Shown: positions 5,459 through 43,124, counted from the stretch's first letter. The stretch: DNA of 64,000 nt from Azospirillum brasilense (GCA_003241645.1 QFOX01000004.1:183-64182), one strand, 5' to 3'. Notes: generated by a model from the sequence alone, not told the origin. Program-made: numbers and translations.

Positions 5459-6331
5459 TTATTGATTCTCGCGTGCTGCTCTGAACTGCGCGAGTTTGGG
5501 CTGCAGCCACGCCGGCAGCTTCAACATAACCGGTCGATTATCCACAGTGATGGGGGTGTTGGCGCGCAGGGCGGCTTCCACTTCTTCGAACTTCAGCAGC
5601 GCAAGCCCGCACGGCCCTTGGCTGCCGCGCAGCGTGCCCAGCGCCACGGTGCCCGCCATGACCGGCGTGCCGAAGGCAGGCAAGGCAGCATCGCCCTGCA
5701 CGCCGTAGAATCCCTTACGCGCGATGTTCTTGTAATGCATGCGCGCGGTCACTTCCTGCCCCACATAGCAGCCTTTGGTGAAGCTGATGGCGCCGAGCGC
5801 GTCGAGCCCCGCATCCATCGCCACATCGTCGAGCATGTCGGTGCTGTCGGGCACGCCAAGGCTGATGCGGTGCTGGTGGTATGCCTCCATGCTGGCGGTG
5901 TTTTTGACGCTCAGCTCCGCATCATGCAAATAGAGCCGTTCGCCAAGCTCGGCGGCGCGCGGGTCGGTCACCAGCACCACGCCCTTCTTGGCGGTGCAGT
6001 GGCCCACGGCGGGGTGTTCGGCACGGGTGCGATAGGCCACGCGCCAGTCGGCGCTGGCGTCGCGCAGCGCCACTTTGGCGCGCAATTTATACATGCTGAG
6101 TTTCTTCAGCAGCGTGTCTTTCTGGGCCGCGGCAATGTCCATGAGAATGGCGTCGCCCTGCGCGAACAGGAAGAAATCATGCTGCACCTTGCCCTGCGGC
6201 GAAAGCAGCGCCGCATAGAGCGCGCGTTCCGGCTTCAGGTGCGTGGCGTCCTGCGTGATCAGCCCCTGAAGGAAGCTGACGCGGTCTTCGCCCGTGATCT
6301 CCAGCAGCGCGCGTGTGGTGTCGGTATGCAT
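5459..6331 (-). CDS. ygfZ: Folate-binding YgfZ-type protein (aminomethyltransferase-like)
   Basis: LEITGEDRVSFLQGLITQD at the N-terminus and the KGCYVGQEVTARM motif near the C-terminus. Confidence 0.85.
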   Translation of the reverse strand: MHTDTTRALLEITGEDRVSFLQGLITQDATHLKPERALYAALLSPQGKVQHDFFLFAQGDAILMDIAAAQKDTLLKKLSMYKLRAKVALRDASADWRVAYRTRAEHPAVGHCTAKKGVVLVTDPRAAELGERLYLHDAELSVKNTASMEAYHQHRISLGVPDSTDMLDDVAMDAGLDALGAISFTKGCYVGQEVTARMHYKNIARKGFYGVQGDAALPAFGTPVMAGTVALGTLRGSQGPCGLALLKFEEVEAALRANTPITVDNRPVMLKLPAWLQPKLAQFRAARENQ

Positions 6332-9787: not shown

Positions 9788-9988
9788 ATGACCGGTCTTG
9801 CCATCCTCCTTCTTGCCCTGATGGGCGCCACCGCCGTGGTGCTGGTGGTTGGCATTGTGTTGATGGCGCGCGGTGGCGAGCCCAACCGAAAATACGGCAA
9901 TAAAATGATGGTAGCGCGCGTGACGCTGCAAGGGCTGGCGCTGGGTGCCATGGCGCTGATGCTGCTGGCGCGCCAGCAGGGCGCGTAA
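9788..9988 (+). CDS. Twin-transmembrane-helix small protein (HIG1-like)
   Basis: 66 aa with two TM helices separated by ARGGEPNRKYGNKMMVARV. Confidence 0.65.
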   Translation: MTGLAILLLALMGATAVVLVVGIVLMARGGEPNRKYGNKMMVARVTLQGLALGAMALMLLARQQGA

Positions 9989-10074
9989 CGCATTTTTCTG
10001 ATCGCTGACGCTGCAGTGCAGCTTGCGTTTTTCCTAAAAAATCCGCATGGTTAAAGAAAAAGGAGAACTGCCGT

Positions 10075-10824
10075 ATGCGCATCCTCGTGCCGGTCAAACG
10101 CGTGGTCGATTACAACGTAAAGATCCGGGTGAAAGCCGACCAGTCGGGCGTTGAACTCGCCAACGTGAAAATGAGCATGAACCCGTTCGACGAGATCGCG
10201 GTGGAAGAGGCGATCCGCCTCAAGGAAAAAGGCATCGCCACCGAGGTGGTCGCGGTGAGCATCGGCATCAAGCAATGCGAGGAAACCCTGCGCACCGCCT
10301 TGGCGGTGGGCGTGGACCGTGCCATTCACGTGCTGACCGACGCGGCCATTGAACCGCTGGTCGCGGCCAAATTGCTGAAGGCCGTGGCGCAGAAAGAATC
10401 CGCCGACCTTGTCATTGCCGGCAAACAGGCCATTGATGACGACGCCAACCAGACCGGCCAGATGTTGGCGGCCCTGCTGGGCTGGCCGCAGGCGACCTTC
10501 GCCAGCAAGGTGGAGATCGCGGGCGGCGAGGCCACCGTGACCCGCGAGGTGGATGGCGGGCTGATGACCGTGGCGGTGAAGCTGCCCGCCGTCATCACCA
10601 CGGACCTGCGCCTGAACGAACCGCGCTACGCCAAACTGCCTGACATTATGAAAGCGCGCGCCAAGCCGCTGACCGTGCTTTCGCCGGCCGAGCTGGGCGT
10701 GGAGCCTGTCACGCGCCTGCAGGTGGTGAAAGTGGAAGAGCCGCCCAAACGCAAAGGCGGCGGCAAGGTGAAGGACGTGGCCGAGCTGGTCGATAAACTG
10801 AAGAACGAAGCGAAGGTGATATGA
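10075..10824 (+). CDS. etfB: Electron transfer flavoprotein beta subunit
   Basis: [46 protein letters not shown]. Confidence 0.95.
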
Positions 10825-11004: not shown

Positions 11005-11931
11005 ATGACGATCCTTGTCATCGCCGAACATGACGGCACCCAGATCACCCCGGCCACCCGCGCCACCATTGGCGCGGCGCAACAGATCGGCGGTGAAGTG
11101 CACCTCGCGCTGGCGGGGCACAATATCGCCCCCGTCATCGAGCACGCAAAACGGCTCGCGGGCATCACCAAGGTGCTGGTCGAGGATGATGCACTGTATG
11201 CGCACCCGCTGGCCGAAGCGCTTGCACCGTTCATTACCCAGCTGGCGGCGGCCTATACACACGTGCTGGCCCCGGCCACCACGCAGGGCAAGGACGTGAT
11301 GCCGCGCGTGGCCGCACTGCTCGACGTGCAGCAGATCTCGGAGATCACCAAGATCATCAGCGCCGATACGTTCGTGCGCCCCATCTATGCGGGCAACGCG
11401 CTGCAGACCGTGCAATCGAGCGACGCGATTAAGGTCATCACCGTGCGCGCCACCGCGTTCGACAAAGTGGGCGAGGGCAACGTGGCGGAAGTGGTGGATG
11501 TGCCCGCCGTGCCGGTGCAGACCACCTCGCGGTTCGTGGGCATGCAGGAAGCCAAGTCCGACCGGCCGGAGCTGACCAGCGCGCGCGTGGTCGTATCTGG
11601 TGGTCGTGGGCTGGGTTCGGCCGAGAATTTCAAACTGCTCGAGAAGCTCGCCGACAAGCTCGGCGCCGCCATGGGTGCCAGCCGCGCCGCGGTGGATGCG
11701 GGCTACGTGCCCAACGACTGGCAGGTCGGCCAGACCGGCAAGGTCGTGGCGCCCGAGCTGTACATTGCCGTGGGCATCAGCGGGGCCATCCAGCATCTTG
11801 CGGGCATGAAAGAGAGCAAGGTCATCGTCGCCATCAACAAGGACGAGAACGCCCCCATCTTCGAGATCGCCGATTACGGGCTGGTGGGTGACCTGTTCGA
11901 GCTGCTGCCGCAGCTGGAAGCCGCGCTCTAG
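11005..11931 (+). CDS. etfA: Electron transfer flavoprotein alpha subunit
   Basis: gaaggag RBS then [12 protein letters not shown]-terminal [34 protein letters not shown]-binding motif. Confidence 0.95.
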
Positions 11932-18958: not shown

Positions 18959-20548
18959 ATGGCTGAACGTATCTACCTCTATGATTCCACCCTGCGCGAC
19001 GGCGCGCAGGCCCGCGGCATTGATTTTACCGTGGCGGATAAACTCGCCATCGCCACCGCGCTTGATGCATTCGGCATCGACTTCGTCGAAGGCGGCTGGC
19101 CCGGTGCCAACCCGACCGACGATGCGTTCTTCGCCGCGGCCCCCACCTTCAAGCGCGCGCAGCTCACCGCCTTCGGCATGACGCGCCGCGCCGGGCGCAG
19201 CGCCAGCAACGACACTGGGCTGCAGGACGTGCTGGCCCCCGCCACGCCCGCCGTGTGCCTCGTCGGCAAAGCATGGGACTGGCAGGTGGAAACCGCCCTG
19301 AAGGTCAGCAAAAAAGAAAACCTCCGCATGATCGAGGAAAGCTTCGCGCATGCGAAAGCGAAAAAGCGCGTCGGCATGTTCGACGCCGAGCATTTCTTCG
19401 ACGGTTACAAAGCCAATCCCGACTACGCGCTCGACGTGTTGCGCGCCGCGCAGGCGGGTGGGGCGCAATGGCTGGTGCTGTGCGACACCAATGGCGGCTC
19501 GCTGCCCAGCGAGATCTCGCACATCGTGAGCGCGGTAAAAAAAGCGCTGCCGAATGCGAACCTCGGCATCCATTGCCACAACGACACCGAGCAGGCCGTG
19601 GCCAATTCGCTGGCGGCGGTGGAAGCGGGTGTGCGGCAGGTGCAGGGCACCATCAACGGTATTGGCGAGCGCTGTGGGAATGCGAACCTGATCTCCATCA
19701 TTCCCACCCTCATGCTGAAGATGGGCTACAGCACGGGCGTGAGCGAGAAGAACCTCGCCAGCATCACCAAGCTTTCGCGGCTGGTGGACGAGCGGCTGAA
19801 CCGCGCGCCCAACGCGCATGCGCCCTATGTGGGGGCGAGCGCCTTCGCCCACAAAGGCGGCCTGCATGTGAGCGCCATGAACAAGGACAGCAAATCCTAC
19901 GAACATGTCTCGCCGGATGCGGTGGGCAACCGCCGCCTTATCCTCGTGAGCGACAAGGCGGGCCGCGCCAACGTGCTCAACCGGTTGCAGCAAATGGGCC
20001 TGCAGGTGGCCGAGGACGATGCGCGCATCACCGATCTGGTGAAAGTGGTGAAGGATCGCGAAGCGCAGGGCTATGCCTATGAGGATGCCGAGGCCAGCTT
20101 CGAGCTGATGGCACGGCAGATGCTGGATGCGGTGCCGAGCTTCTACGAGCTGCAAAGTTTCCGCGTGCTGGATGAGCGGCGCATGGACGCCAAGGGCCGC
20201 CGCACCACCATGTCGGAAGCCACCGTGAAACTCACCGTGGCGGGCAAACTGAAAATGAAAGTGGCCGAAGGCAACGGCCCCGTGAACGCGCTGGATGCGG
20301 CGCTGCGCAAAGCGCTGATCGTGAAGTACCCGCAGCTGAAAGACATGTACCTGAACGACTATAAGGTGCGCATCCTTAACCCGTCGGACGCAACGGCGGC
20401 GCTGACGCGCGTGATGATCGAGAGCAAGGACAAGCAGGGCCATAGCTGGACGACCATCGGCGTGTCGCACAACGTGATCGACGCGTCGTACAACGCGCTG
20501 CACGATGCGATCAGCTACCACCTGATGCGCCGCAAGGCGAAGGCATGA
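18959..20548 (+). CDS. cimA: Citramalate synthase / LeuA-family HMGL-like enzyme
   Basis: MAERIYLYDSTLRDGAQARGIDFTVADKLAIATALDAFGIDFVEGGWPGANPTDDAFF. About 530 aa with a LeuA-dimer-like C-terminus. Confidence 0.85.
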   Translation: MAERIYLYDSTLRDGAQARGIDFTVADKLAIATALDAFGIDFVEGGWPGANPTDDAFFAAAPTFKRAQLTAFGMTRRAGRSASNDTGLQDVLAPATPAVCLVGKAWDWQVETALKVSKKENLRMIEESFAHAKAKKRVGMFDAEHFFDGYKANPDYALDVLRAAQAGGAQWLVLCDTNGGSLPSEISHIVSAVKKALPNANLGIHCHNDTEQAVANSLAAVEAGVRQVQGTINGIGERCGNANLISIIPTLMLKMGYSTGVSEKNLASITKLSRLVDERLNRAPNAHAPYVGASAFAHKGGLHVSAMNKDSKSYEHVSPDAVGNRRLILVSDKAGRANVLNRLQQMGLQVAEDDARITDLVKVVKDREAQGYAYEDAEASFELMARQMLDAVPSFYELQSFRVLDERRMDAKGRRTTMSEATVKLTVAGKLKMKVAEGNGPVNALDAALRKALIVKYPQLKDMYLNDYKVRILNPSDATAALTRVMIESKDKQGHSWTTIGVSHNVIDASYNALHDAISYHLMRRKAKA

Positions 20549-21126
20549 AACCGCTGCTGCTGAGCATGGCCGCGTGCCTGCTGGCCGGTGCCGCGCATGC
20601 GCAATCGCCGCAAGTGACGCTGGATTACAACGATGCGAAGCTGAGCGATGTTGCCGTGCCGCGTGAGGGCAACATGTTCGACCATTTCCGTGAACTGGGC
20701 GAAGACTTCAACCAACTGCGCGTGCGCGGCGCAACGCCAGATAGTTTCCGCTACCGCTTCACCACGCAGGCCGCCATTGGCGCAGAAGGCCCGTGGCAAA
20801 CGCTCGACCTTGAGGCCGATTCGCCGTGGCAGGAACTGCCCGTGACCCAGAACGGCGACGAAGTGGTTATCGTGCTGGATGATGGGGCGGGCAAAGGCCT
20901 GTTCGCCACCGAGCCGATGACGCTGGTGGGCACGCCGCGCAACTACCCCGCGGGCGAAGATGTGGTGAGTACCATGCGCCCCGAGCGCGATTGCCTGAAC
21001 GCCAGCGGTGCGTTCGATGCGCAGGCGGGCGCGTGCTACACCTACCGTTCGCAGGACCGCATCCGCTTCAACGGCACCGACGGCAAGGCTTATGAGATCA
21101 CCATCGGCCACCCCGGCGGGTGTTAG
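20545..21126 (+). CDS. Secreted hypothetical protein
   Basis: MKPLLLSMAACLLAGAAHAQS signal peptide. ATGA overlap with cimA. Confidence 0.6.
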   Translation: MKPLLLSMAACLLAGAAHAQSPQVTLDYNDAKLSDVAVPREGNMFDHFRELGEDFNQLRVRGATPDSFRYRFTTQAAIGAEGPWQTLDLEADSPWQELPVTQNGDEVVIVLDDGAGKGLFATEPMTLVGTPRNYPAGEDVVSTMRPERDCLNASGAFDAQAGACYTYRSQDRIRFNGTDGKAYEITIGHPGGC

Positions 21127-21127
21127 C

Positions 21128-21835
21128 ATGAGCATCGCCATCATCCTCGTGCGCCCGCAAATGGGTGAGAATATCGGCGCGGCAGCGCGTGCCTGCGCGA
21201 ATTTCGGCGTGACCGACCTGCGCCTCGTTGCCCCGCGCGACGGCTGGCCCAACCCCAAAGCGGTGGATATGGCGGGCCGCGCCATCGACCTGCTGGACGA
21301 AACAACCGTGTATGACACCACCGCCGAAGCCGTGGCGGATTGCCAGTTCGTGCTGGCCACCACCGGCCGTGCGCGCGCGGTGAACATTCCGGCGCACACG
21401 GCGCGCGAAGCGGCAAGCATGCTGCGCCAGCGCGTGGCGGCGGGGCAGAAGGTGGCCGTGCTGTTCGGCCCCGAGCGCACCGGGCTGGAGAACGAAGACG
21501 TGGCCACCGCCAACGGCGTGCTCTACATTCCCGTGGCGCCCGAATACCCCAGCCTGAACCTTGCACAGGCCGCCGTGGTGGTGCTTTCCGAATGGTTCGC
21601 CGCGGGCGAGCCGCCCGCGCCCGAAGGGCTGGCCCCCGCCGCCCCGCGCGAGGAACTGCAGGGCATGTTCGCCCAGCTGGAAGCAGCGCTGGATGACGTG
21701 AATTTCTGGAAGGTGCCCGCGAAAAAAGAGCTGATGTGGCGCAACATTCGCACCGGGTTGACGCGTGCCGACCTCACCAGCCAGGAAGTGGCCACGTGGC
21801 GCGGCATGATCCGCGCGCTGCGCGACGGGGCATAG
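21128..21835 (+). CDS. SpoU/TrmJ-like RNA 2'-O-methyltransferase
   Basis: MSIAIILVRPQMGENIGAAARACANFGVTDLRLVAPR...VLFGPERTGLENEDV...IPVAPEYPSLNLAQA. Confidence 0.8.
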   Translation: MSIAIILVRPQMGENIGAAARACANFGVTDLRLVAPRDGWPNPKAVDMAGRAIDLLDETTVYDTTAEAVADCQFVLATTGRARAVNIPAHTAREAASMLRQRVAAGQKVAVLFGPERTGLENEDVATANGVLYIPVAPEYPSLNLAQAAVVVLSEWFAAGEPPAPEGLAPAAPREELQGMFAQLEAALDDVNFWKVPAKKELMWRNIRTGLTRADLTSQEVATWRGMIRALRDGA

Positions 21836-21862
21836 GCATCCGGCGGCGCTCGTAAGCACTTT

Positions 21863-21968
21863 GCCCTCACCCTCCCACGCCTGACGGCGTGGTGCCCTCC
21901 CTCTCCCTCAGGGAGAGGGCGCGAGGCTTGGCGAGCAACGGCGAGCCTAGCCGCAGGGGTGAGGGTGG
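21863..21968. repeat. 106-bp nested palindromic repeat (ccctcaccc ... ggtgaggg)
   Basis: Outer arms are gccctcaccct / aggggtgagggt. Inner hairpins are cacgcctgacggcgtg, ccctctccctcagggagaggg and aggcttggcgagcaacggcgagcct. Confidence 0.8.
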
Positions 21969-22041
21969 AAGCGTCGCATTGTCACGCAATGTTCATAAAC
22001 CGCCGGGCCATCTTCCCCTATACTGCAAGGTAGGAAAAACT

Positions 22042-22623
22042 ATGGCCAATCCGACCCAACAGCCCCCGCAGCAACCGAAAGGTCCGCCGCCGCAGCCGAA
22101 AGCCCAGCATATGGGCTTCGACCCGCTGCGCCCGGTGCGCTACGGCTTCGGCTTCACCAAAGGGGCCACCGTCGGCCTGCTCGATGGCATGGCGGGCTTC
22201 GGCCGCAAAGGCGCATGGGCCGGGGCGGGGCTTGGCATTCTCATGGGCATTGCCGGCACGTTCAGCGGCGGCCTCATTCTGGGCATGGCGCTGACCGGGC
22301 TGGTCGTGGGTGCGGGCGCGGGGGCGGCCATCGGGGCCGTCACGGGCGGCACCAACGCCATTGGCCGTGCGCATCGCCGCGAGAAATACGCCGACGAACT
22401 TTCCGAGCGCCAGCAGGCACGCGCCGCGCGCGAAGCGCGCACGCAAAAGACGCACATTCCCGCGCCGGATTATCGTGACCAGCTGGAATATCGCCGCCGC
22501 GCCGCGAACTTCAACTTCGATCGCGCGCTGCAGCAGGAAATGGAAAACGACCGCGACTATGGTACCTACTGGCAGGATCGTGTAAGCCAGTCGCAAAGCA
22601 ACGGTAACGGACGAGGCTTCTAA
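22042..22623 (+). CDS. Gly/Ala-rich glycine-zipper membrane protein 1 (P/Q-rich N-terminus)
   Basis: MANPTQQPPQQPKGPPPQP...AWAGAGLGILMGIAGTFSGGLILGMALTGLVVGAGAGAAIGAVTGG. TAATG coupling to the next gene. Confidence 0.6.
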   Translation: MANPTQQPPQQPKGPPPQPKAQHMGFDPLRPVRYGFGFTKGATVGLLDGMAGFGRKGAWAGAGLGILMGIAGTFSGGLILGMALTGLVVGAGAGAAIGAVTGGTNAIGRAHRREKYADELSERQQARAAREARTQKTHIPAPDYRDQLEYRRRAANFNFDRALQQEMENDRDYGTYWQDRVSQSQSNGNGRGF

Positions 22624-23240
22624 TGGTAACGACCCCCGGCGGCCCAGAGACCCAACTCCTGCAACAAGGCGGCCAGATGCTGCAGCAGGGCGCGCAACGC
22701 GTCATGAGCGGTGGCGGCGGATTCCTCAGCGGCCTCATTTCGGCGCCGTTCAATGCGCTGGGCGGCATGGCCAAGGGCGCGTTCAATGGCATCGTTCGCA
22801 ATACACTGCTGGGTGGGGGTATCCTCTCCGGCCTGATGCTTTTTGCGCCGGATGTAATTCCCGGCGTGCTGGAATTCATTGGCAAGCCGGAATGGGGTGA
22901 GCGCCTCGCCAGCATGGTGCGCACCGGTGGTGCACCGGCGGCGCTGGGCACCGCCTTTGCCACCGCTGCGGCGGGTAGTGCCGCATGGGGTGCCGCACGC
23001 GGTGCGATCGGCGGCGTGAGTGAAGGATTCGGCGGCAGCGGTGCCACCAGCCCCGAACAGGCGCAGGGCATCGGCATGGGCACGCTGGTGGGGGGTGGCC
23101 TTGCACTGGCGGCGGTGACCGCCGTGGCCATCGGCGCCATTAAGAAAGACGGTATCAGCCACGACGCTGGCGCGGGCGACCGCGTGGAACCCCCGGCAAC
23201 CCCGGGTGGCCGAACCGGCCAGACCGCCCAGCGCGGGTAG
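22623..23240 (+). CDS. Gly/Ala-rich membrane protein 2
   Basis: GGGGFLSGLISAPFNALGGMAKGAFNGIV...GIGMGTLVGGGLALAAVTAVAIGAI. Confidence 0.55.
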   Translation: MVTTPGGPETQLLQQGGQMLQQGAQRVMSGGGGFLSGLISAPFNALGGMAKGAFNGIVRNTLLGGGILSGLMLFAPDVIPGVLEFIGKPEWGERLASMVRTGGAPAALGTAFATAAAGSAAWGAARGAIGGVSEGFGGSGATSPEQAQGIGMGTLVGGGLALAAVTAVAIGAIKKDGISHDAGAGDRVEPPATPGGRTGQTAQRG

Positions 23241-23382
23241 TAGCAAGGTTCGTGCAGATCATCGAAACTCCGATTTACGGTCGTTGAGCATGTGGGGCGG
23301 TCATCACGGCATGTGCGGCTAAGCGTTGCCCATCGCCATACGGAGATGGCTCGGGCCCCGCAAGCCTCCCATGGTTTTCGCC

Positions 23383-23409
23383 AGTTTCGACCGATTTACG
23401 GTCGAAACT
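23383..23409. repeat. Perfect 27-bp palindrome (11-bp arms) with a partial upstream copy
   Basis: agtttcgaccg attta cggtcgaaact. The core ccgatttacggtcg also occurs at 23270-23283, preceded by tcgaaact. Confidence 0.85.
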
Positions 23410-23481
23410 GTCATCAAACCTTCACGTTACTTGCATGCACGCTGTGCTATTCTGCAAGCTAGGAAATAAGCCCATTAGGGG

Positions 23482-24033
23482 ATGAACATGCGTAACGAAG
23501 TCATTGCACCCATCAACCACGGCGCACTCAGCACCGCCACCACCACCGCCGTTGAGGCGGGCAAAAGCGGCCTCGGCGGGTTGCTGAAAGGTGCGCTGGT
23601 CGGCATCGGCCTCACGGCTGGCCTTATCGGCGCGGTCGCACTTGGGTTCGGCGCAACGCTTGCCACCGCAGCAACGGTTGCCGCGCTGGGCACAGGCGTG
23701 GCCATCACGGCCGCTGCATTCGGTGCGCCGGTGGTCGGTTCGCTCATTGGCATCAGCGCGGGCCTTGGCTCGCTGGCCGGTGGCTTCAAAGGTGCGTCGC
23801 GCGGGCTTGAGCGCGTGGGGCAGGAACGTGGCGCGGCCAACATGCTTTCCGCGCAGGTGGATGCGTACAAAGCACAGAACCAGCCGCAAACGGTGGTGTA
23901 TGCCCCGAGCGCTTCGAACAGCCAATCGTTCCCCGCGCAGGGCTCGCCCATGAATCAGGCGGGCAGCACGGTGACGAACGCCCAATACATGGACCGCGTG
24001 AACGGCGCTGAACTCGCCGCCGCACGGGCATAA
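23482..24033 (+). CDS. Gly/Ala-rich glycine-zipper membrane protein 3
   Basis: GLGGLLKGALVGIGLTAGLIGAVALGFGATLATAATVAALGTGVAITAAAFGAPVVGSLIGISAGLGSLAGG. Confidence 0.6.
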   Translation: MNMRNEVIAPINHGALSTATTTAVEAGKSGLGGLLKGALVGIGLTAGLIGAVALGFGATLATAATVAALGTGVAITAAAFGAPVVGSLIGISAGLGSLAGGFKGASRGLERVGQERGAANMLSAQVDAYKAQNQPQTVVYAPSASNSQSFPAQGSPMNQAGSTVTNAQYMDRVNGAELAAARA

Positions 24034-24045
24034 GGAGTCAGGATC

Positions 24046-24537
24046 ATGGCAATCTTCCCCAAAGCCGCTGCCCAATTCGGCAAAGTCGCTGGCGACTTTA
24101 AAGGCCTTGGCAGCAATATCGGCAACGCCTTCGGCGCGCTGAAGAACAGCCTCACCAACGGCACCGGCTTCATTGGCCGCGCGGCCGACACCGCCACCAG
24201 CACCACCGTGTGGGCGGCGCGTGCGCCCGTGCGCATGGTCAAAGGTGCTTACGGTGCCTTCCCGAAACTTTCTGCTCTTGCCACTGTGGCTGGCGGTGCT
24301 GTGGTCGTGAATAACGTGGTGCGTGGCGCTGCCGAAAAACGCACGCAGGGCGAGCTGGAAGCGCAATACAACCAGCCCACCGGCCCGGTCAGCGCGAATG
24401 CCTATCAGGTATCACCGGAAGAATACGCCGCCATGCAGGCACGCATGCGCCAGGGCGGGCAGGGCCAGGGCTTTGCCGCCGCTGAAGAAGCACGCCGCGC
24501 CGCCGCGGCGCAGCAGCAAACGACCCCGGCCGTGTAG
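24046..24537 (+). CDS. Gly/Ala-rich protein 4 with a C-terminal FAAAEEAR motif
   Basis: aaggag RBS. FGKVAGDFKGLGSNIGNAFGALKNSL...GQGQGFAAAEEARRAAAAQQQTTPAV. Confidence 0.6.
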   Translation: MAIFPKAAAQFGKVAGDFKGLGSNIGNAFGALKNSLTNGTGFIGRAADTATSTTVWAARAPVRMVKGAYGAFPKLSALATVAGGAVVVNNVVRGAAEKRTQGELEAQYNQPTGPVSANAYQVSPEEYAAMQARMRQGGQGQGFAAAEEARRAAAAQQQTTPAV

Positions 24538-24561
24538 GCAAACCACGTCGGGAATCGGAAA

Positions 24562-24590
24562 AGCGGGCCCCCTCCGGCCCGCTTTTTTTA
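24562..24590 (+). terminator. Rho-independent terminator after the Gly/Ala-rich cluster
   Basis: agcgggcc / ggcccgct stem followed by ttttttt. Confidence 0.7.
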
Positions 24591-24708
24591 TGGCTGGGCG
24601 CGATCTTCTGCGCATCCATGCTTGACAGTCTGTGGAAAACCGTTAAAAGACCTGCTCCTTGGGCACCGGAGCGCATATTCCCCTCCGCCCTTGAGAGGTG
24701 AGATTTAG

Positions 24709-24790
24709 GGCGAGGCCAGTAGGCCGAGCGAGCCATCAGCCCGCGAAGCGGCGCACCATTGGGAGCGCAGGAGCGCGAGCAGGGTGCAGC
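24709..24790. repeat. Family B-related repeat in the rpsD upstream region
   Basis: The core ggccgagcgagccatcagcccgcgaagcggcgc (24722-24754) matches 42782-42814 inside rnpB. Confidence 0.75.
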
Positions 24791-24881
24791 TAAAACTCGT
24801 TTGGGAATAGTAATCATTGGTGTCGCACCGCAGCGAAGGCTGCCAAGCGGCGCTGATAACGTTGAACTGAAGGAGACTCGC

Positions 24882-25502
24882 ATGAGCAAACGTCATGCCG
24901 TGAAGTACAAAATTTCCCGCCGTATCGGTGAGAACCTCTGGGGCCGCGCCAAGGACCCCGTGAACCGTCGCAGCTACGGCCCCGGCCAGCATGGTGCTGC
25001 CGCAGCCCGCAAAAAACTGTCCGACTACGGCCAGCAGCTGCGCGCCAAGCAAAAACTGAAAGCCTACTACGGCAACCTGACCGAGAAGCAGTTCAGCAAG
25101 CTCTACAAAGAAGCGATCCGCGTGAAAGGCGATACCAGCGAGAACCTGATCGGCCTGCTGGAGCGCCGCCTCGATGCAGTGATCTACCGCATGTGCGTGG
25201 TGCCCACCGTGTTCGCGGCACGCCAGTTCGTGAACCACGGCCACATCAAAGTGAACGGCCGTCGCGTGAACATCCCGAGCTACACCGTGAAAGAAGGTGA
25301 TGTGATCGAGGTGAAGGACAAGTCGAAAGAACTCGCCATCGTGATCGAGTCGATGCAGTCGCCCGAGCGCGAAGTGCCCGAATACATCGAAATGGATGAG
25401 AAGGCCGTAAAAGCGACCTTCAAGCGCATTCCGAAACTGTCGGATGTGCCCTATCCGGTGAAGATGGAACCGAATCTGGTGGTGGAATTCTACAGCCGCT
25501 AA
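24882..25502 (+). CDS. rpsD: 30S ribosomal protein S4
   Basis: [38 protein letters not shown]. Confidence 0.97.
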
Positions 25503-26244: not shown

Positions 26245-26670
26245 TTAGTCGCGGCCACGCCCACGCGCTTCGGTGCGCACGGCGCAGCGGCCATTCGCCG
26301 CACGGTAGCCGACATAGCGGTTCGGCTCATCCTGCGCGTCGTCAAAATCACGCACCTGACACAGCCGCGCCCCGGCTTCGGCGCGCGTACGGGCAAGTTC
26401 CATGATGGCGCGGTATTCGCGCGAGCCGGGCTGTGGGGCGGGCGTGTCGTAAAGCTCGGCCTTGCCGGCGATCTGGCGGCGGGCGCAGCTTTGCGTCGAT
26501 GCATCGTTGATGGAGCCAAGGCCCACCCACCCAGCCAGCGTATTGCCGATGGAGGCGAGCACGCCGTCATTGCGCGGATCGGGCAGCAGGCAACGCGTGG
26601 CCACCGCCTGCGCGGCCTCGGCCTGCTGGCGGTCGTTGAAATGGCGTTGCGATGGAGGCGTATCACCCAT
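26245..26670 (-). CDS. Hypothetical protein (141 aa)
   Basis: Most protein-like of several overlapping frames in this span. No motif recognised. Confidence 0.35.
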   Translation of the reverse strand: MGDTPPSQRHFNDRQQAEAAQAVATRCLLPDPRNDGVLASIGNTLAGWVGLGSINDASTQSCARRQIAGKAELYDTPAPQPGSREYRAIMELARTRAEAGARLCQVRDFDDAQDEPNRYVGYRAANGRCAVRTEARGRGRD

Positions 26671-26731
26671 AGCCTAGATTCTAGCGCAAATGGGCCCGGA
26701 AAGTATGACGATTCGGTGAAATATCCAGCGT

Positions 26732-29833: not shown

Positions 29834-31198
29834 ATGGACGCGAATGCTCCGCAGGAATTCTCCACCGAGGTGCGCGGCCATTACGAAGAGCTGCCCTACC
29901 CGTACCGCGACGTCGCGCAGGAGGGGAAGCAATTTAATGGCTCCGATGGTTTCAACCCCACCGCGTTCACGCATCATGGCTGGCAGGGCAAGCGCGACCT
30001 GCGCGACGGCGCACGCATTCTGATCGCGGGCGATGGCACGGGCGATGCCTCGATCAACTGGGCGGAAAGCATGCTCGGCAGCCGTGCCGAGATCGTGGCG
30101 ATCGATCTGTCTTCGCAATCCATTGCGCTGGCCAAAGCGCGCCTTGCCAAGCGCCAGCTCACAAACGTGACGCACCACCACATGTCCATTCTGGACCTGC
30201 CAACGGCCGGGCTTGGCAGCTTCGACGTGATCGAATGCACCGGCGTGCTGCACCATTTGCCCGACCCGGCGGCCGGCCTTGCGGCACTGGGTTCCGTGCT
30301 GAAGGATGATGGCATCATGGGGCTGATGGTCTATGCCGAATATGGCCGCGTGGCGGTCTATATGCTGCAGGACCTGTTCCGCCGCCTGAGCACCCCCGAC
30401 ATGACGCGCGCCGAGAAACTTGCGCTGGCGCGCGCGTTTCTCGATAACGTGCCCACCACGCACTGGATCACCGTGAAGAATGAGCTTTTCCTTGGCGACA
30501 TCCAGTGGCCGGATGGCAGCGGCATCTACGACCTGCTGTTGCACAGCACCGATCGCGCCTACACCGTGCCGCAGCTTTATGAATGGGTGCAGGGTGCCGG
30601 GTTGAACCTGCATGGCCTGTTCGGCGATTTCATCAGTGAGTCGCTGTATGAGCCCGGCAATTACAATCGCGATCCGCGTATCCTCGCTTCGCTGGAAGGG
30701 AAGGATAAGCCCGAGCGGCAAGCCATCGCCGAGCTGATGCATGGCAGCATGTGCAAGCACAACCTGTACGTGACCAAGCAGCCCAAAGAGCCGGCCTCTT
30801 TCGCCGATGATATGGTCATCACTTATGGGCTGATGCACACGCTGTTCGTATCGTTCGTGGCGGAGCTTTCGGCCCTGCTGGCGCAGGTGAATATCGGGGA
30901 ACGGGTGCTGTTCCGCCCACGCCCGATGGCGACGGCCGAGATGATGTACCTCACCCGCCGCCCGGCAACGATCATGCTGCTACAAGCCATCGATGGGAAG
31001 CGCAGCATCGGCGAGATCGTGGGCCTTGTCAGCAGGGAAGCCAAGCTGTCGCGCAACGATGTGCGCAAGGACCTGCACCTGCTCTACACCGAGATGTATG
31101 ATCGGTTGCTGGTGTTCCTGCGGCATGAATCGGTGCCACCCTACTTCACGGCCGTTGAAATGCTGGCGCGGTTGCGCGCGATTGGGCTGATTGCTTAG
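29834..31198 (+). CDS. Class I SAM-dependent methyltransferase with an extra C-terminal region
   Basis: aggagg RBS. ILIAGDGTGDASI (motif I) ...FDVIECTGVLHHLPDP...GIMGLMVY. The C-terminal ~60 aa resemble a PqqD-like fold (AIDGKRSIGEIVGLV). Confidence 0.8.
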   Translation: MDANAPQEFSTEVRGHYEELPYPYRDVAQEGKQFNGSDGFNPTAFTHHGWQGKRDLRDGARILIAGDGTGDASINWAESMLGSRAEIVAIDLSSQSIALAKARLAKRQLTNVTHHHMSILDLPTAGLGSFDVIECTGVLHHLPDPAAGLAALGSVLKDDGIMGLMVYAEYGRVAVYMLQDLFRRLSTPDMTRAEKLALARAFLDNVPTTHWITVKNELFLGDIQWPDGSGIYDLLLHSTDRAYTVPQLYEWVQGAGLNLHGLFGDFISESLYEPGNYNRDPRILASLEGKDKPERQAIAELMHGSMCKHNLYVTKQPKEPASFADDMVITYGLMHTLFVSFVAELSALLAQVNIGERVLFRPRPMATAEMMYLTRRPATIMLLQAIDGKRSIGEIVGLVSREAKLSRNDVRKDLHLLYTEMYDRLLVFLRHESVPPYFTAVEMLARLRAIGLIA

Positions 31199-31629
31199 TG
31201 AAGGGTGCGGGTGGCCGGCGCGTTGATGCGGGCTTCTTCCGCGGCGGCAAAGCTGCGGTCGGCCTGCTTGGCGCCTTCTTCCAGAATGGTGGACAGGCGG
31301 GGCGAATGCACCGGGCCTTCCAGCATTTCTTCCTGCTCCAGCGCGGTGGCGCGGCCTTCCAGCCGGGCCAGCTTGGCATCGTAGATCGTGTTGTGTTTCT
31401 GCTGGTGGTAATTGCTGAGCGCCTGATGGCCGCTGAACATGCCCACGGTGAGCGCGGTGGAAAGCACGCTGATGACCGCCACGGTCACCGACACGCCGGG
31501 CAGCACGCCCGCCAGCATCAGCCCGCCCACGGGCACGGCCAGCGCGGCGATGTAGCCAAAGCTGCGCACGAGACCCTTTTTGGCGCCATCCCAGAAGGCG
31601 GAAGCGGTTTCCTGTGTTGAGAGCTGCAT
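31195..31629 (-). CDS. Hypothetical membrane protein with a bilobed hydrophobic segment and FAAAEEAR tail
   Basis: FGYIAALAVPVGGLMLAGVLPGVSVTVAVISVLSTALTVGMF ... RSFAAAEEARINAPATRTLH. Confidence 0.55.
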   Translation of the reverse strand: MQLSTQETASAFWDGAKKGLVRSFGYIAALAVPVGGLMLAGVLPGVSVTVAVISVLSTALTVGMFSGHQALSNYHQQKHNTIYDAKLARLEGRATALEQEEMLEGPVHSPRLSTILEEGAKQADRSFAAAEEARINAPATRTLH

Positions 31630-31720
31630 TCCTTAGATGTAGCAAAAATCACCGGCGGCCGGTGTGAAGATTGTGTGACGGCAACGGATGCGCTATAGAG
31701 CCCCGCAGGAGAACCGCACC

Positions 31721-40142: not shown

Positions 40143-40865
40143 ATGAATATTCTCTCCCGCCCATCGCCCAACCATGACAGCCGTGGCGACCAGCCGGTCG
40201 ATACGCTGGTGCTCCACTACACCGACATGCTGAGTGCGGAGGAGGCGATTGCGCGCCTGTGCGATGCCGAGGCAAAAGTGTCGGCACATTATGTGGTGAG
40301 CGAAGCGGGCGAGGTGACGCAACTGGTGGATGAGGCGATGCGCGCATGGCACGCGGGCGAATCGCACTGGCGCGGCAACAACAACATGAACGCGCGCTCC
40401 ATCGGCATCGAGATCGCCAATCGCGGCCACAGCCACGACTACCCGGATTTTCCGCCGGCGCAGATGCAGGCGGTGATCGCGCTGGCGAAGGCCATCGTGG
40501 CGCGGCACGGCATTCCTGAGCGCAACGTGGTGGGCCATTCCGACATTGCCTTCCTGCGCAAGCAGGACCCCGGCGAGAAATTCGACTGGGCCGCGCTGGC
40601 GCAGGCGGGGGTGGGGGTGTTTCCGTTCAACACCAAACCGCTGACCGGCACGGAACTAAAAATCGGTGACACGGGCAATGTCGTCATCCGCCTGCAGACC
40701 TCGCTTTCCAACTGGGGCTATGGCCTGAAGCTGGATGGCAAGTTCGGTGAGAAAACGCATGCCTGCGTGGTCGCCTTCCAGCGCCATTACCGCCCCGCCA
40801 ACCTCGACGGTGTGTGGGACAACGAGTGCGCCGGATTGCTTGCGGCGTTGCACGGCATGGTATAA
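40143..40865 (+). CDS. N-acetylmuramoyl-L-alanine amidase (amidase_2, AmpD/AmiD type) with a C-terminal PG-binding domain
   Basis: SPNHDSRGDQPVDTLVLHYTDM...SAHYVV...AWHAGES...IGIEIAN...VVGHSDI. C-terminal LQTSLSNWGYGLKLDGKFGEKT. Confidence 0.85.
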   Translation: MNILSRPSPNHDSRGDQPVDTLVLHYTDMLSAEEAIARLCDAEAKVSAHYVVSEAGEVTQLVDEAMRAWHAGESHWRGNNNMNARSIGIEIANRGHSHDYPDFPPAQMQAVIALAKAIVARHGIPERNVVGHSDIAFLRKQDPGEKFDWAALAQAGVGVFPFNTKPLTGTELKIGDTGNVVIRLQTSLSNWGYGLKLDGKFGEKTHACVVAFQRHYRPANLDGVWDNECAGLLAALHGMV

Positions 40866-40875
40866 ACTTCTTTGC

Positions 40876-41667
40876 ATGAAGTCCTCTGCCTCTCACGCAT
40901 TCTCACTCGTTGAATTAAGCATCGTGCTGGTCATTCTCGGCCTGCTCACGGGCGGCATTCTGGCGGGGCAATCGCTGATCCACGCCGCCGAGATGCGCAG
41001 CATCTCCACCGACATCAACCGCTACACCACGGCGATGCGCAGCTTTCAGGATAAGTATTTTGCCATTCCCGGCGACATGACCAACGCCACCGCCTTCTGG
41101 GGCGCGCAGGATAGTGGCGACGGCCTGGGCGCCGATTGCACGGGTGTGGATTCGACCACGCCGCTCACCTGCAATGGCAATGGCAGCGGCAATATCTACG
41201 CCGATAACAGCGGCGCGACGGACGCGCCCGAAGCCTACCGTGCATGGCAGCATCTGGCGAATGCGGGGCTGATCGAAGGCTCCTACCGCGGCAAGCAGAC
41301 CAGCGGCAGCCTGAGCATTACGCCGGGGCAGAATATTCCCGCCTCGAAGATCGGTGCGGGCATGGGCTGGTTCTGGAATTACCGCGGTTTCGAGAACGGC
41401 ACCTCGGGCTACTTCAATGGCAATTACGGGCAGATGATCCGGCTGGGAAGCGGGCAGGCGGCGCGCACGGCGGTGATCTCGGCGCAGGACATGTGGAACC
41501 TTGATACCAAGATGGACGATGGCCGCCCGGCCTATGGCGTGATGCGCGGCAACAAGAGCGACACCTTCCCCGAATGCACCACGGCCACGGCCGTGACGGC
41601 GGATTACAAGCTGGATTCGACCAGCGGCACGGCCTGCTCGGTGCAGTTCATCGTGCAGCCGATGTAG
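40876..41667 (+). CDS. Prepilin-type N-terminal domain protein, paralogue B
   Basis: MKSSASHA-FSLVELSIVLVILGLLTGGILA. Shares PGD..NAT.FW and LDTKMDDG.P motifs with 7822..8559. Confidence 0.7.
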   Translation: MKSSASHAFSLVELSIVLVILGLLTGGILAGQSLIHAAEMRSISTDINRYTTAMRSFQDKYFAIPGDMTNATAFWGAQDSGDGLGADCTGVDSTTPLTCNGNGSGNIYADNSGATDAPEAYRAWQHLANAGLIEGSYRGKQTSGSLSITPGQNIPASKIGAGMGWFWNYRGFENGTSGYFNGNYGQMIRLGSGQAARTAVISAQDMWNLDTKMDDGRPAYGVMRGNKSDTFPECTTATAVTADYKLDSTSGTACSVQFIVQPM

Positions 41668-41676
41668 GCGGCGCGC

Positions 41677-42387
41677 TTAGCGCGTGAAGGTGATGCCGAA
41701 ATCCTGCTCAAGTTTCGCGCGGCCCTGAAGGTTGCGCTCCTGCGCTTCCTCCAGCGTGGTGCGTGGCGTGGTGGCGGCGCGGGCTTCTTCGGCCAGCTGC
41801 ATGATGCTGGTGCGGTTGGGGAATGCGTTGAAACGATCCGGCTGGGCAAGCACGCGGCGCGGGTGTTCGCGCGCGAAGGCTTCAAAGGCTTCTTCCACCA
41901 GCGGGTGAATATCGAACTGGCGGTGCGCGCTCAGGATCTGCGGCGCAAACCCCACGGCCACGGCGGGCTGTGCTTCCATCACGATCGGGGTGATGACGCG
42001 GATGGTTTCGCTGTATTGCCGGCGCTCGTCGTTGCTGAGCGTGCCCTGCTTCAGGGCGTAGCTGTATTGAATGAAGAAATCGCTGTAGCTGTGGTCGCTC
42101 AGGTGGGCGGCCAGTTTCAGCACGTCCAGCTCGTCGGCGGGCGTGAAATTCTTGTGCAGCTCCTGCATGGTGCGCATGCCGCGGCGGCAGAAATTCTGCG
42201 CCCATTCCCACTCGCGCGAGCCTTCGGCCGGGCCTTTTTCCTGCAGGCGTTCGATCAGTTCCACCAGCTCGGGGTGGGTCTGGGCGCGGGTGCGCAGCGC
42301 CTCACGCGTGTGGTCGTGAAAGGGGGAGCTGCTGGTGTCGGTCAGCCAGCGTGGCAGGGGTTTGGATGGGTGTTCGTTCTGGTTCAT
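41677..42387 (-). CDS. Hypothetical hydrophilic protein (236 aa)
   Basis: No TM segment or signal peptide. The C-terminal region contains LAEEARAATTPRTTLEEAQ. No domain recognised. Confidence 0.5.
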   Translation of the reverse strand: MNQNEHPSKPLPRWLTDTSSSPFHDHTREALRTRAQTHPELVELIERLQEKGPAEGSREWEWAQNFCRRGMRTMQELHKNFTPADELDVLKLAAHLSDHSYSDFFIQYSYALKQGTLSNDERRQYSETIRVITPIVMEAQPAVAVGFAPQILSAHRQFDIHPLVEEAFEAFAREHPRRVLAQPDRFNAFPNRTSIMQLAEEARAATTPRTTLEEAQERNLQGRAKLEQDFGITFTR

Positions 42388-42592
42388 GGCGGGGCCTTCT
42401 AACGGTAATCTGCCTTAGAAGTGTGAATATTGCGTTACAATCGCCGCACGGGGCGCTAGATTACCCTGACCAGATGGCCGGATGGCTGCGGGGAATGCTA
42501 TGTGTTGCTGAGGAGCGAAGAGCTCCAACGCAAGAAAAACGGGTTTTGTTTTTGTGCATGGACGGCCAGCAGGCCGGCCCTGCCAAGAGCAC

Positions 42593-42638
42593 GCGAAAGC
42601 GGCGCGAAGCATCGCACAGTATGTGCGATCTGCGGAGC
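42593..42638 (+). repeat. Family B hairpin repeat inside rnpB helix P3
   Basis: gcgaaagcggcgcgaagcatcgcacagtatgtgcgatctgcggagc. The stem is atcgcac/gtgcgat. Confidence 0.85.
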
Positions 42639-42765
42639 AAAAAAATCCAACATCTCCCCGAGGAAAGTCCGGGCTCCACGGAACACGGTGGCGGGTAACG
42701 CCCGCCCGGCGCAAGCCGAGAGACAGTGCCACAGAAACAAACCGCCTTTTTCGCGCGGTACTGGC

Positions 42766-42848
42766 GGCAGCGAGGGCAGCAGCCCGAGCGAGCCATCAGC
42801 CCGCGAAGCGGCGCGAAGCATCGCACAGCATGTGCGATTTGCGGAGCA
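42766..42848 (+). repeat. Family B repeat (long form) inside rnpB helix P12
   Basis: ...gcccgagcgagccatcagcccgcgaagcggcgcgaagcatcgcacagcatgtgcgatttgcggagc. The 3' part matches 42593..42638 and the 5' part matches 24722..24754. Confidence 0.85.
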
Positions 42849-43124
42849 CCAATAAGGTAAGGGTGAAAAGGTGGGGTAAGAGCCCACCGCGCCGCTGGTA
42901 ACAGCGTGTGGCCAGGCAAACCTCACCGGGAGCAAGACCAAATAGGCGTGCAGTGGTTCAATCCACGGGCCGTTCCGGGCCGCACGCGGGTAGGTTGCTT
43001 GAGCCATGCAGCAATGCATGGCCTAGATGAATAGCCATCCATCCCAGCAATGGGGGGACAGAACCCGGCTTACAGGCCATCTGGTGTTAACGCTTTGTTC
43101 ATGCGTGGCTGCTAACCTCGGCCT

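Follow-up and report, generated by a model that had tools for sequence, protein, structure and literature searches.

The subject of this work is a cluster of four genes for glycine-rich, predicted membrane proteins in a 64,000-nucleotide (nt) stretch of DNA assigned to Azospirillum brasilense (GCA_003241645.1 QFOX01000004.1:183-64182), hereafter referred to as the window, whose positions serve as coordinates throughout. The genes were named g1-g4 in their order along the + strand. According to the table of open reading frames (ORFs) and the sequence, g1 occupies positions 22042-22623 (+) and encodes 193 amino acids (aa); it is followed on the same strand by g2 (22623-23240, 205 aa), g3 (23482-24033, 183 aa) and g4 (24046-24537, 163 aa). 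A gene of a SpoU-family RNA methyltransferase (Pfam SpoU_methylase, E 7.6e-27) ends upstream at position 21835, and rpsD (24882-25502) lies downstream. The stop codon of g1 overlaps the start codon of g2 in the sequence TAATG at 22621-22625, by which g2 is translationally coupled to g1. The spacing between g3 and g4 is 12 nt, with the AAGGAG ribosome-binding site of g4 overlapping the g3 stop codon. Folding revealed an intrinsic terminator after g4 at approximately 24558-24590 (+), with a stem of 13 base pairs (bp) rich in G+C followed by a T-run. An initial annotation of the cluster had described four ORFs of these lengths on one strand before rpsD, the TAATG coupling, the 12-nt spacing with aaggag before g4 and a clean terminator at the end, and each of these features, coordinates and lengths included, was confirmed. 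The start of g3 probably requires a small correction: since orthologues of g3 begin with M-(Q/K/S)-N-E and the position of the AGGGGA ribosome-binding site suits the second ATG, translation is predicted to begin at 23488 rather than 23482, giving a protein of 181 aa. The cluster of proteins at 90% identity that includes g3 contains members of 181 aa.

To place the genes in context, loci of relatives, labelled L001-L019 and taken with flanks of about 10 kb, were compared. Pairwise ratios of nonsynonymous to synonymous substitution rates were 0.17-0.38 for g1-g4, and GC content at third codon positions was 0.72-0.78; together with the presence of orthologues of all four in relatives, these values mark g1-g4 as real genes under purifying selection and not chance ORFs. 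The GC content of the quartet matches that of its surroundings. The gene order CimA - (variable) - SpoU - g1 - g2 - g3 - g4 - rpsD - ... - Grx - PurL is found in relatives, and the set and its synteny are kept, as far as contigs reach, in L001, L004, L007, L008, L009, L013, L015 and L017. The initial annotation had left room for the ORFs not being conserved as a set in any relative; the quartet proved to be syntenic in at least eight distinct ones. The TAATG overlap of g1 and g2 is kept in L001, L004, L007 and L009, and a hairpin with a T-run equivalent to that after g4 was present in 6/6 loci checked. Locus L010 has a SpoU-g1-g3-like arrangement without detectable g2, and in L011 g1 is followed by a weak g2-like gene. 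Among the loci, identity is 78-95% for CimA, 30-64% for g1 (~30-40% in the most distant loci) and 25-59% for g4. As the identity of g1 and g4 is far below that of CimA while synteny is fixed, the quartet is a core component of its clade that nevertheless evolves fast.

A consensus promoter/terminator scanner missed both promoters of the cluster and its terminator, which were revealed by comparative alignment and folding. The same architecture precedes both g1 and g3: a TGTCAY-N6-TTCAC direct repeat, followed by 22 nt and then by TAnnnT. The half-sites of this box, (G/T)TCAY, are in direct orientation and 11 bp apart. At the promoter of g1, P1, the box TGTCACGCAATGTTCAT (21980-21996, +), with its two (G/T)TCAY half-sites, is followed by a −10-like hexamer TATACT (22019-22024, +) and then by a TAGGAAA ribosome-binding site. 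At the promoter of g3, P2, a box of the same type, TGTCATCAAACCTTCAC (23409-23425, +), is followed by an extended −10 element TGcTATTCT (23445-23453, +), the hexamer of which is 22 nt away from the box, and by a leader of ~30 nt containing AGGGGA. No −35-like hexamer was found at the usual distance from the −10 element of either promoter.

A P1-type box was found at the same position upstream of g1 in 11 distinct loci. It is exact in L001, L004, L007, L009, L013, L015 and L017, has variant half-sites in L008, L010 and L019, and is represented by a different repeat, CTGTCATattaTCGTCAT, in L011. In the loci aligned TATAnT stands at a fixed 22 nt from the P1-type box, with the exception of L010, where the spacing is 21 nt, and L011, which has no such −10 element. 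The P2 box is exact in 10/10 distinct loci for which the region upstream of g3 was available, L010 included. Thus, in most loci the box is exact at both promoters, even where the proteins have diverged to ~30% identity; the estimated number of exact chance matches to the box architecture is ~0.01 per 10-kb locus. The comparison shows P1 and P2 to share a conserved architecture of predicted activator type. The element made up of box, 22-nt spacer and −10 hexamer had been missed in the initial annotation and is a conserved non-coding feature of the cluster. The g2-g3 gap is 241 bp long in the window and ranges from ~110 to 290 nt across loci; no conserved terminator was found in it across the loci compared. 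Read-through of P1 transcripts into g3-g4 is therefore possible, in which case P2 would serve as an internal promoter.

A tandem (G/T)TCAY direct repeat with an 11-bp period is a signature of winged-helix response regulators of the OmpR/PhoB family, and for this reason a regulator of this type is proposed to act at both boxes, which look like either a CenR site or a pho box. The likeness to sites of CenR from Rhodobacter sphaeroides consists of a tandem, co-directional repeat located just upstream of where a −35 element would be. The published CenR motif is T(G/C)A-N8-TGA, co-directional and directly upstream of −35, with several mapped sites beginning, like the P1 box, with TCACGCAATC (PMC9275681). 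Three mapped CenR sites share 9 identical nt with the P1 box, which begins with TCACGCAAT (PMC9275681). The boxes described here are TCA-N8-TCA; among 31 mapped sites of this degenerate motif TCA is common as the first half-site and occasional as the second. Both the position and the orientation of the boxes fit the CenR layout if TAnnnT is the −10 element. The CenR regulon of R. sphaeroides consists mostly of envelope proteins (PMC9275681). As for PhoB, whose pho box is CTGTCAT-N4-CTGTCAT, the first half-site of the boxes, TGTCAY, is canonical, and the second, nTTCAC, is a variant like those in some PhoB sites. Escherichia coli PhoB sites mapped by chromatin immunoprecipitation include TGTCATCAAACTGCCAT and TTTCATAAATCTGTCATA (PMC10294691), and the P2 box equals the PhoB site of yoaI at 14/17 positions (PMC10294691). 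The direct repeat unit of Streptomyces PhoP, G(G/T)TCAYYYR(G/C)G (PMC2275107), resembles the boxes in its half-site and 11-bp periodicity. ChvI was considered as well and rejected, its published motifs (TTGC-N3-GCAA and GCC-N8-GCC; PMC9731502) being different from the box.

The products of g1-g4 are unusual in composition. Small residues (G+A+S+T) account for 36-50% of each protein, and polar tails of 70-90 aa are conserved. Uncharged hydrophobic stretches span 48 aa in g1, 28 and 29 aa in g2, 74 aa in g3 and ~20 aa in g4, with Kyte-Doolittle maxima over 19 residues of 1.5-2.2. Cysteine is lacking from all four proteins, which makes a lipobox impossible, and their N-termini are polar or Pro/Gln-rich, without a signal-like segment. 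Lacking signal peptide, lipobox and cysteine, the proteins are unlikely to be outer-membrane lipoproteins. Hydropathy and the absence of cysteine agree with the initial annotation, in which long hydrophobic segments, polar tails and no lipobox had been noted. Its further statement that GxxxG/A repeats dominate all four proteins holds in part. When compared with shuffled sequences, g1 contains seven GxxxGxxxG motifs vs 2.0 expected (p ~0.004) and g2 contains 26 small-xxx-small motifs vs 14.9 expected (p 0.003); the excess over composition is marginal in g3 (p 0.05), and g4 is only weakly zipper-like. In the g1 family, invariant glycines recur at i+4 (G41/45/49, G57/61/65, G86/98/102), and G90 and G94 are conserved in at least 90% of members. 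By the broad definition of a glycine zipper (Kim et al. 2005), (G,A,S)xxxGxxxG in a hydrophobic helix with in-register conservation, the proteins qualify.

The anatomy of each protein was derived from family alignments. The variable, Pro/Ala/Gln-rich N-terminus of g1 is followed by GFDPxRPxRY (GFDPLRPxRY) and GT..G.LDG.A..GRKG, and then by the 48-aa uncharged glycine-zipper stretch, residues 57-104, predicted to form a hairpin. After it come TGG..GV.R..R.EKYAD(D/E)LA, a variable linker, DYRD, YNFDR..QQ.REN.RD..TYWQDRV and a C-terminal GRG(F/Y/W). In the window copy the basic helical tail carries EKYADEL, NFDRALQQ and TYWQDRV and ends with GRGF. Since basic residues prevail on both sides of the g1 hairpin (KR7/DE2 and KR17/DE14), the positive-inside rule places both ends in the cytoplasm. 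We infer that g1 and g3 would both be helical hairpins of the inner membrane with N-in/C-in topology. A conserved ETQLLQQG is found at the N-terminus of g2, the hydrophobic segments of which (61-88 and 147-175) are separated by a Gly/Ala-rich region. The g3 N-terminus follows the conserved pattern M-x-NE-x-I-x-PI-xHG; its hydrophobic Gly/Ala region of 74 aa is longer than that of g1 and tolerates insertions and deletions, and its polar tail contains ERGAANML..AQ..AYQAQ and (Y/S)xFPAQGSxMNxAGS. In g4 a basic amphipathic N-terminal half is followed by a moderately hydrophobic segment (74-93) and a Q/A-rich tail with VTPxEYAAMEARMKQGG..GFAAA across the family (VTPEEYAAM..RQGGQ..GFAAA in the window copy).

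Profile-profile comparison (hhalign) of g1 with g3 gave a probability of 93-95% (E 7e-8 to 3e-7), and that of g1 with g2 a probability of 83%. A reversed-sequence control for g1 and g3 still gave 65%, so that composition accounts for much of the signal. The g1 and g3 proteins may be distant paralogues, and the same may apply to g1 and g2. Paralogy of g2 and g4 was rejected, being unsupported by the comparison, and g4 is unrelated to g1, g2 and g3.

Searches with the four proteins against Pfam, NCBIfam, PHROGs and PADLOC gave nothing above threshold. In particular, no match even at E ≤1 was obtained for g1-g4 with PF05433 (Rick_17kDa_Anti), PF13488 (Gly-zipper_Omp), PF13436 (Gly-zipper_OmpA) or PF13441 (Gly-zipper_YMGG). 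A Pfam scan of 97 g1-family members produced only scattered sub-threshold matches to the RTX N-terminal domain, Romo1, Gly-zipper_Omp, FUN14, CsmC and TraT. Gly-zipper_Omp was matched by 1/97 members (E 0.0055) and Romo1 by two (E ~5e-4, under the Pfam threshold). For the RTX N-terminal hydrophobic domain (PF02382, gathering threshold 26.8 bits) g1 scored only 12.3 bits (E 0.13), the best family member 19 bits, and 3/97 members had E ≤0.01. The best PHROG match (E 0.0014), to a tape-measure profile of 1988 positions, is non-significant, and a match to the PADLOC '2TM effector' is sub-threshold. The RTX, Romo1, Gly-zipper_Omp, tape-measure and 2TM-effector matches are probably compositional. 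A g1-family fragment of 135 aa (P0100) is named 'gas vesicle protein' by JGI/IMG; the name is unsupported in Pfam, where the fragment matched only RTX (E 0.0012) and YidB (E 0.025).

Among PDB sequence profiles nothing better than E 0.05 was found for the four families, the best matches being the APP/Aβ zipper for g2 (E ~0.5) and PRKRIP1 for the g1 tail (E 0.05). An AlphaFold2 model of g1, built from a 20-sequence alignment, consists of helices 30-73, 76-136 and 144-186, i.e. a predicted long helical hairpin with a third helix, at a predicted local distance difference test (pLDDT) score of 69. The single-sequence model of g2 is all-helical (pLDDT 55). Foldseek comparison of the g1 model with the PDB gave no match with E <1. 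The initial annotation had recognized no known family, and this view stands after Pfam, NCBIfam, PHROGs, PADLOC, PDB profiles and Foldseek (PDB), all of which were without a significant match; no confident hit to a characterized family, which would have changed the picture, came from either profile or Foldseek searches.

The predicted hairpins bring to mind membrane-shaping scaffolds, in which glycine-rich hairpins would oligomerize to bend or compartmentalize the inner membrane, as mitochondrial Mic10 or reticulon-type hairpins do. The long hydrophobic hairpins (45-74 aa) with in-register glycines, the alphaproteobacterial lineage, the clade-core status and fixed synteny of the proteins, as would befit a structural component, and the weak family matches to Romo1, FUN14 and chlorosome CsmC, all small glycine-rich hairpin proteins, are consistent with this idea. 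Mic10 and Romo1/Mgr2, small proteins of the mitochondrial inner membrane, share with g1-g4 a two-helix hairpin, glycine-rich packing and the inner membrane of alphaproteobacterial ancestry. However, the g1-g4 proteins are twice as long and have conserved soluble tails, and no MICOS/TIM partners were seen; the Romo1, FUN14 and CsmC matches are far under threshold and probably compositional, no Mic60-like gene was seen nearby, and regulated promoters better suit a conditional function than a constitutive scaffold. We consider a scaffold of this kind unlikely. A stress-gated channel or holin-like pore, formed in the inner membrane by oligomers with glycine zippers, is quite unlikely, to a slightly greater degree. 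Glycine zippers are described as typical of channel-lining helices (Kim et al. 2005, as cited in PMC5380434), and weak matches pointing the same way were found among PHROGs (holin and tape-measure membrane segments) and by Foldseek (TolQ, hairpins of alpha-pore-forming toxins). All of them are non-significant (E ≥1e-3 with the small libraries searched; Foldseek E >1), neither a phage nor a lysis context is present, and a channel leaves the large conserved cytoplasmic tails unexplained.

The zippers and the sub-threshold RTX matches also recall bacteriocins. In such a module, similar to Cdz or to class II, the cluster would encode two or more secreted, aggregating, pore-forming glycine-zipper peptides together with immunity proteins. 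Zippers and a Gly/Ala/hydrophobic composition are common to g1-g4 and to CdzC and CdzD (PMC5380434); the Caulobacter proteins are likewise alphaproteobacterial, with extended zippers in which G, A, V and I abound, and in both cases several zipper proteins are encoded by neighbouring genes. Fast sequence evolution and the sub-threshold matches to the RTX N-terminal domain and the PADLOC '2TM effector' could be read in the same way. The Cdz peptides, however, are 84-86 aa long, have RTX-like leaders, adjoin genes of a type I secretion system (T1SS; cdzAB) and an immunity gene, and are patchy and island-associated (PMC5380434). With 163-205 aa, long conserved polar tails and no leader peptide, the g1-g4 proteins differ from such small peptides of 5-10 kDa. 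Genes of a T1SS, a C39 peptidase or HlyD are absent from the vicinity of the cluster in every locus, and the neighbours found in the larger loci by gene and Pfam annotation (CimA, SpoU, S4, Grx, PurL) are all housekeeping genes. The inheritance of the quartet is strictly vertical and syntenic, at a fixed spot among these genes clade-wide, in contrast to the patchy, island-associated Cdz, and the basic flanks on both sides of the g1 hairpin point to a resident inner-membrane topology. A bacteriocin module is very unlikely in view of the protein sizes, the missing exporter, the vertical inheritance and the topology. The initial annotation had judged the pore-former, bacteriocin and 17-kDa-antigen contexts to fit poorly and had seen no T1SS, phage or pilus partner; none of our tests contradicts it.

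The tail of g1 is highly basic, helical, conserved and, by the predicted topology, cytoplasmic (isoelectric point 9.6, 17 K+R). Combined with the conserved adjacency to the SpoU-family gene and rpsD, such a tail could belong to a membrane-anchored partner of the translation apparatus, similar to the tail-anchored, ribosome-binding E. coli proteins YqjD, ElaB and YgaM. Against this, rpsD is served, downstream of the terminator, by a separate promoter and leader, a regulated promoter separates the SpoU-family gene from g1, and Pfam searches revealed no similarity to DUF883/ElaB. Given the separate promoters and the terminator, the adjacency to SpoU and rpsD is a matter of synteny, not of an operon, and we regard an association with ribosomes as very improbable indeed.

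In a public protein collection the exact g1-g4 sequences belong to clusters of 3-5 members that are annotated as 'hypothetical protein' or unnamed. A search with g1 yielded 20 clusters at 90% identity among 5.8 billion proteins, and a g1 profile search of 1.84 billion representatives gave 117 matches, 100 of them with E <1e-10. The matches are full-length proteins of 160-250 aa, and the family comprises ~100 clusters at 50% identity. Scans with strict patterns found 2 loci in the genome collection and 1 in metagenome contigs. The named genomes with the quartet are two metagenome-assembled genomes only, labelled 'Rickettsiales bacterium' and 'Azospirillum sp.', and the lineage is a clade of uncultured alphaproteobacteria. 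No relatives of g1 were found in plasmid or phage records, nor did the g1- and g3-family profiles find a relative among viral contigs; judged by these searches, a phage origin of the quartet is unlikely. The label 'Rickettsiales bacterium' raises the thought of a host-associated or predatory lineage whose g1-g4 proteins would be secreted effectors that insert into host or prey membranes by Inc-like bilobed hydrophobic domains. Bilobed hydrophobic domains are indeed present, the genes evolve fast in comparison with housekeeping genes, and the N-terminal motifs of g2 and g3 are conserved. However, the contigs encode an ordinary free-living metabolism (CimA, PurL, NadE, ETF) at a GC content of ~60%, the samples come from a lake and other environmental metagenomes, no secretion system is nearby, and labels of metagenome-assembled genomes are unreliable, the other relative being labelled 'Azospirillum sp.'. 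Effectors are the most improbable of the explanations that we weighed.

We return to the co-regulated complex as the reading that we prefer, tentatively and at somewhat less than even confidence: g1-g4 may encode a clade-specific, hetero-oligomeric glycine-zipper complex of the inner membrane that stabilizes, shapes or gates it. The scaffold, channel, ribosome-associated and effector models each have less support. The quartet forms two translationally coupled pairs, g1-g2 and g3-g4, and activator-type promoters of one kind precede them both; according to this model, a two-component signal relayed by an OmpR/PhoB-family regulator would switch both promoters on. In g1 and g3, the in-register glycines would let the helices pack on one another and on the partners g2 and g4, with the conserved basic helical tails staying in the cytoplasm. 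The four proteins would assemble into a hetero-oligomer that stabilizes, shapes or gates the membrane. We infer from sequence and comparison the inner-membrane location, the topology, the hetero-oligomerization, which regulator acts on the promoters and what the complex does in the cell.

By analogy, the closest functional counterparts would be SlyB/PCP, OsmB and YfgH, which are small envelope proteins built around an oligomerizing GxxxGxxxG helical hairpin and regulated by two-component or stress systems. The PhoPQ response to outer-membrane stress includes SlyB (bioRxiv 10.64898/2026.06.08.730324, 10.64898/2025.12.22.696046). The g1-g4 complex could be an inner-membrane counterpart of such stress-induced glycine-zipper proteins. 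Unlike lipoproteins of the SlyB/OsmB type, g1-g4 have neither a signal peptide nor a lipobox cysteine, do not match their profiles, carry long conserved cytoplasmic tails and are four different proteins encoded in two coupled pairs.

Several points weigh against the complex as formulated. As far as the regulator is concerned, no OmpR-family gene was found in the window or in any relative locus, and the published CenR motif is so degenerate that its match to the boxes is weak evidence. In E. coli the pho box ends ~10 nt from the −10 element, as in the phoA and pstS promoters, and replaces the −35 element. The distance from box to −10 is 22 nt here vs 10 nt in E. coli pho boxes; this is therefore not the classical pho-box arrangement, and PhoB is no clean fit. 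As far as the proteins are concerned, the transmembrane topology is based solely on hydropathy and the positive-inside rule, the models are of modest (g1, pLDDT 69) or low (g2, pLDDT 55) confidence, and paralogy among g1, g2 and g3 is weakly supported after the composition control. Finally, the quartet evolves much faster than the neighbouring housekeeping genes, which would also suit surface-exposed or antagonistic roles.

If the proposal of a co-regulated complex is correct, the cluster represents a compact glycine-zipper system of the inner membrane, with a sharply defined promoter box through which its regulation can be traced, and the principle of stress-induced glycine-zipper oligomers, known for outer-membrane lipoproteins such as SlyB, extends to hairpin proteins of the cytoplasmic membrane. 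The box offers a handle on a clade-wide regulon of largely unannotated proteins in alphaproteobacteria known almost only from metagenomes. For curation, there are four protein families without a Pfam or NCBIfam model and one conserved cis-element. The quartet is restricted to an obscure clade and has no bearing on a long-standing open question. In a bolder version, which we hold to be rather unlikely, the quartet, perhaps together with the gene g5 (see below) and other box-bearing genes nearby, would constitute a hitherto undescribed, lineage-defining inner-membrane machine: a hetero-oligomeric glycine-zipper assembly serving as channel or membrane-shaping scaffold, turned on by an OmpR-family two-component system and without a characterized counterpart among bacterial membrane complexes.

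When a strict weight matrix was derived from the promoters of g1 and g3, the window yielded no sites other than these two. Further sites score below it, and the genes that follow them, among them two clade-specific hypothetical genes, are therefore candidates only. One such candidate regulon member, 'gene y' (ORF 26245-26670, −, region to 26721, 141 aa), lies downstream of the glutaredoxin gene. Its box is swapped: TTTCACCGAATCGTCAT at 26705-26721 is followed by 21 nt and TAGAAT. A swapped box (TTTCAY-N4-TTGTCAY) stands 21-22 nt upstream of TAnAAT before the syntenic gene in L001, L008 and L009, where the relatives of gene y are found at ~5704-6233, ~10949 and ~9867-10252, respectively. No Pfam match was obtained for gene y, whose box suggests a putative local regulon cluster interspersed with housekeeping genes. 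Another candidate, 'g5' (ORF 31195-31629, −, region to 31680), encodes a protein of 144 aa with a predicted two-helix hydrophobic hairpin and a polar tail, and is preceded by the box CGTCACACAATCTTCAC at 31664-31680, followed by 22 nt and TACATC. No Pfam match was obtained for g5 either, and its homology to g1-g4 was rejected, as there is no significant similarity. The g5 C-terminal sequence SFAAAEEAR echoes GFAAAEEAR of g4. At the counterpart spot in L007 a gene of 145 aa adjoining a methyltransferase gene lies on the opposite strand. A weak candidate is ORF 41677-42387 (−), which encodes a soluble protein of 236 aa with the N-terminus MNQNEH... and without a Pfam match; a box-like sequence TGTAACGCAATATTCAC (42423-42439, −) precedes it, with a poor −10 element at the expected spacing.

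Two palindromes had been pointed out in the initial annotation, one upstream of the cluster and one in the 241-bp gap that splits it. Both are real, and neither is conserved across the clade, so that as functional parts of the module they were rejected. The nested palindrome, which separates the g1 promoter from the SpoU-family gene (21860-21968), has a fold z of −4.07 and is missing upstream of g1 in relatives. In L008 (7104-7315), L013 (~3050-3160) and L017 (~11600-11680), similar nested palindromes with GGGAGAGG/GGGTGAGGG occupy different intergenic positions. The arms of this family are GGGAGAGG/CCTCTCCC and GGGTGAGGG/CCCTCACCC, and a lone GGGTGAGGG is found at position 8545 of the window. 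Being absent upstream of relatives' g1 and present elsewhere, the nested palindrome is, by this comparison, identified as an insertion resembling repetitive extragenic palindromes (REP) or miniature inverted-repeat transposable elements (MITE), outside the conserved module. The perfect palindrome CAGTTTCGACCG-ATTTA-CGGTCGAAACTG (23382-23410), with arms of 12 nt, abuts the P2 box. It is common only to the window and to L004, the nearest relative, with compensatory changes in both arms; the other loci lack it. A direct repeat of 14 nt, CCGATTTACGGTCG, is found in the g2-g3 gap at 23270-23283, in a partial copy of the palindrome, and at 23391-23404, in the palindrome core. The gap palindrome may be a lineage-specific operator or an RNA hairpin. 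An Rfam search over positions 21800-24950 gave no known RNA family.

Some features of the window outside the cluster were also recorded. Upstream of rpsD, positions 24620-24881 contain a separate TTGACA-type promoter for this gene and a conserved 5′ leader with the invariant blocks GAGCGCATATTCCCCTCCGCC and TGGGAATAG, a partly covarying hairpin and no Rfam match. The leader is also present in L001, L007, L008, L009, L013, L015 and L017; the window copy carries an extra insertion of ~100 nt. It may be a clade-specific S4 autoregulatory leader. The sole match in the window at the Rfam gathering level is RNase P RNA of bacterial class A (42616-43088, +, 259.8 bits), and no tRNA genes were found in the 64 kb. 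An ORF of 310 aa at 40735-41664 (+) has a sub-threshold Pfam N_methyl match at residues 52-76 (20.8 bits vs a cutoff of 21.2) and may encode a type IV pilin or pseudopilin-like protein. Finally, an ORF of 193 aa at 20545-21126 (+), without a Pfam match, begins with the signal-peptide-like MKPLLLSMAAC... and encodes a possible lipoprotein. Its start overlaps the stop codon of a citramalate/isopropylmalate-synthase-like gene (ATGA). The ORF is present in L004, the closest relative, and other genes take its place in more distant ones.

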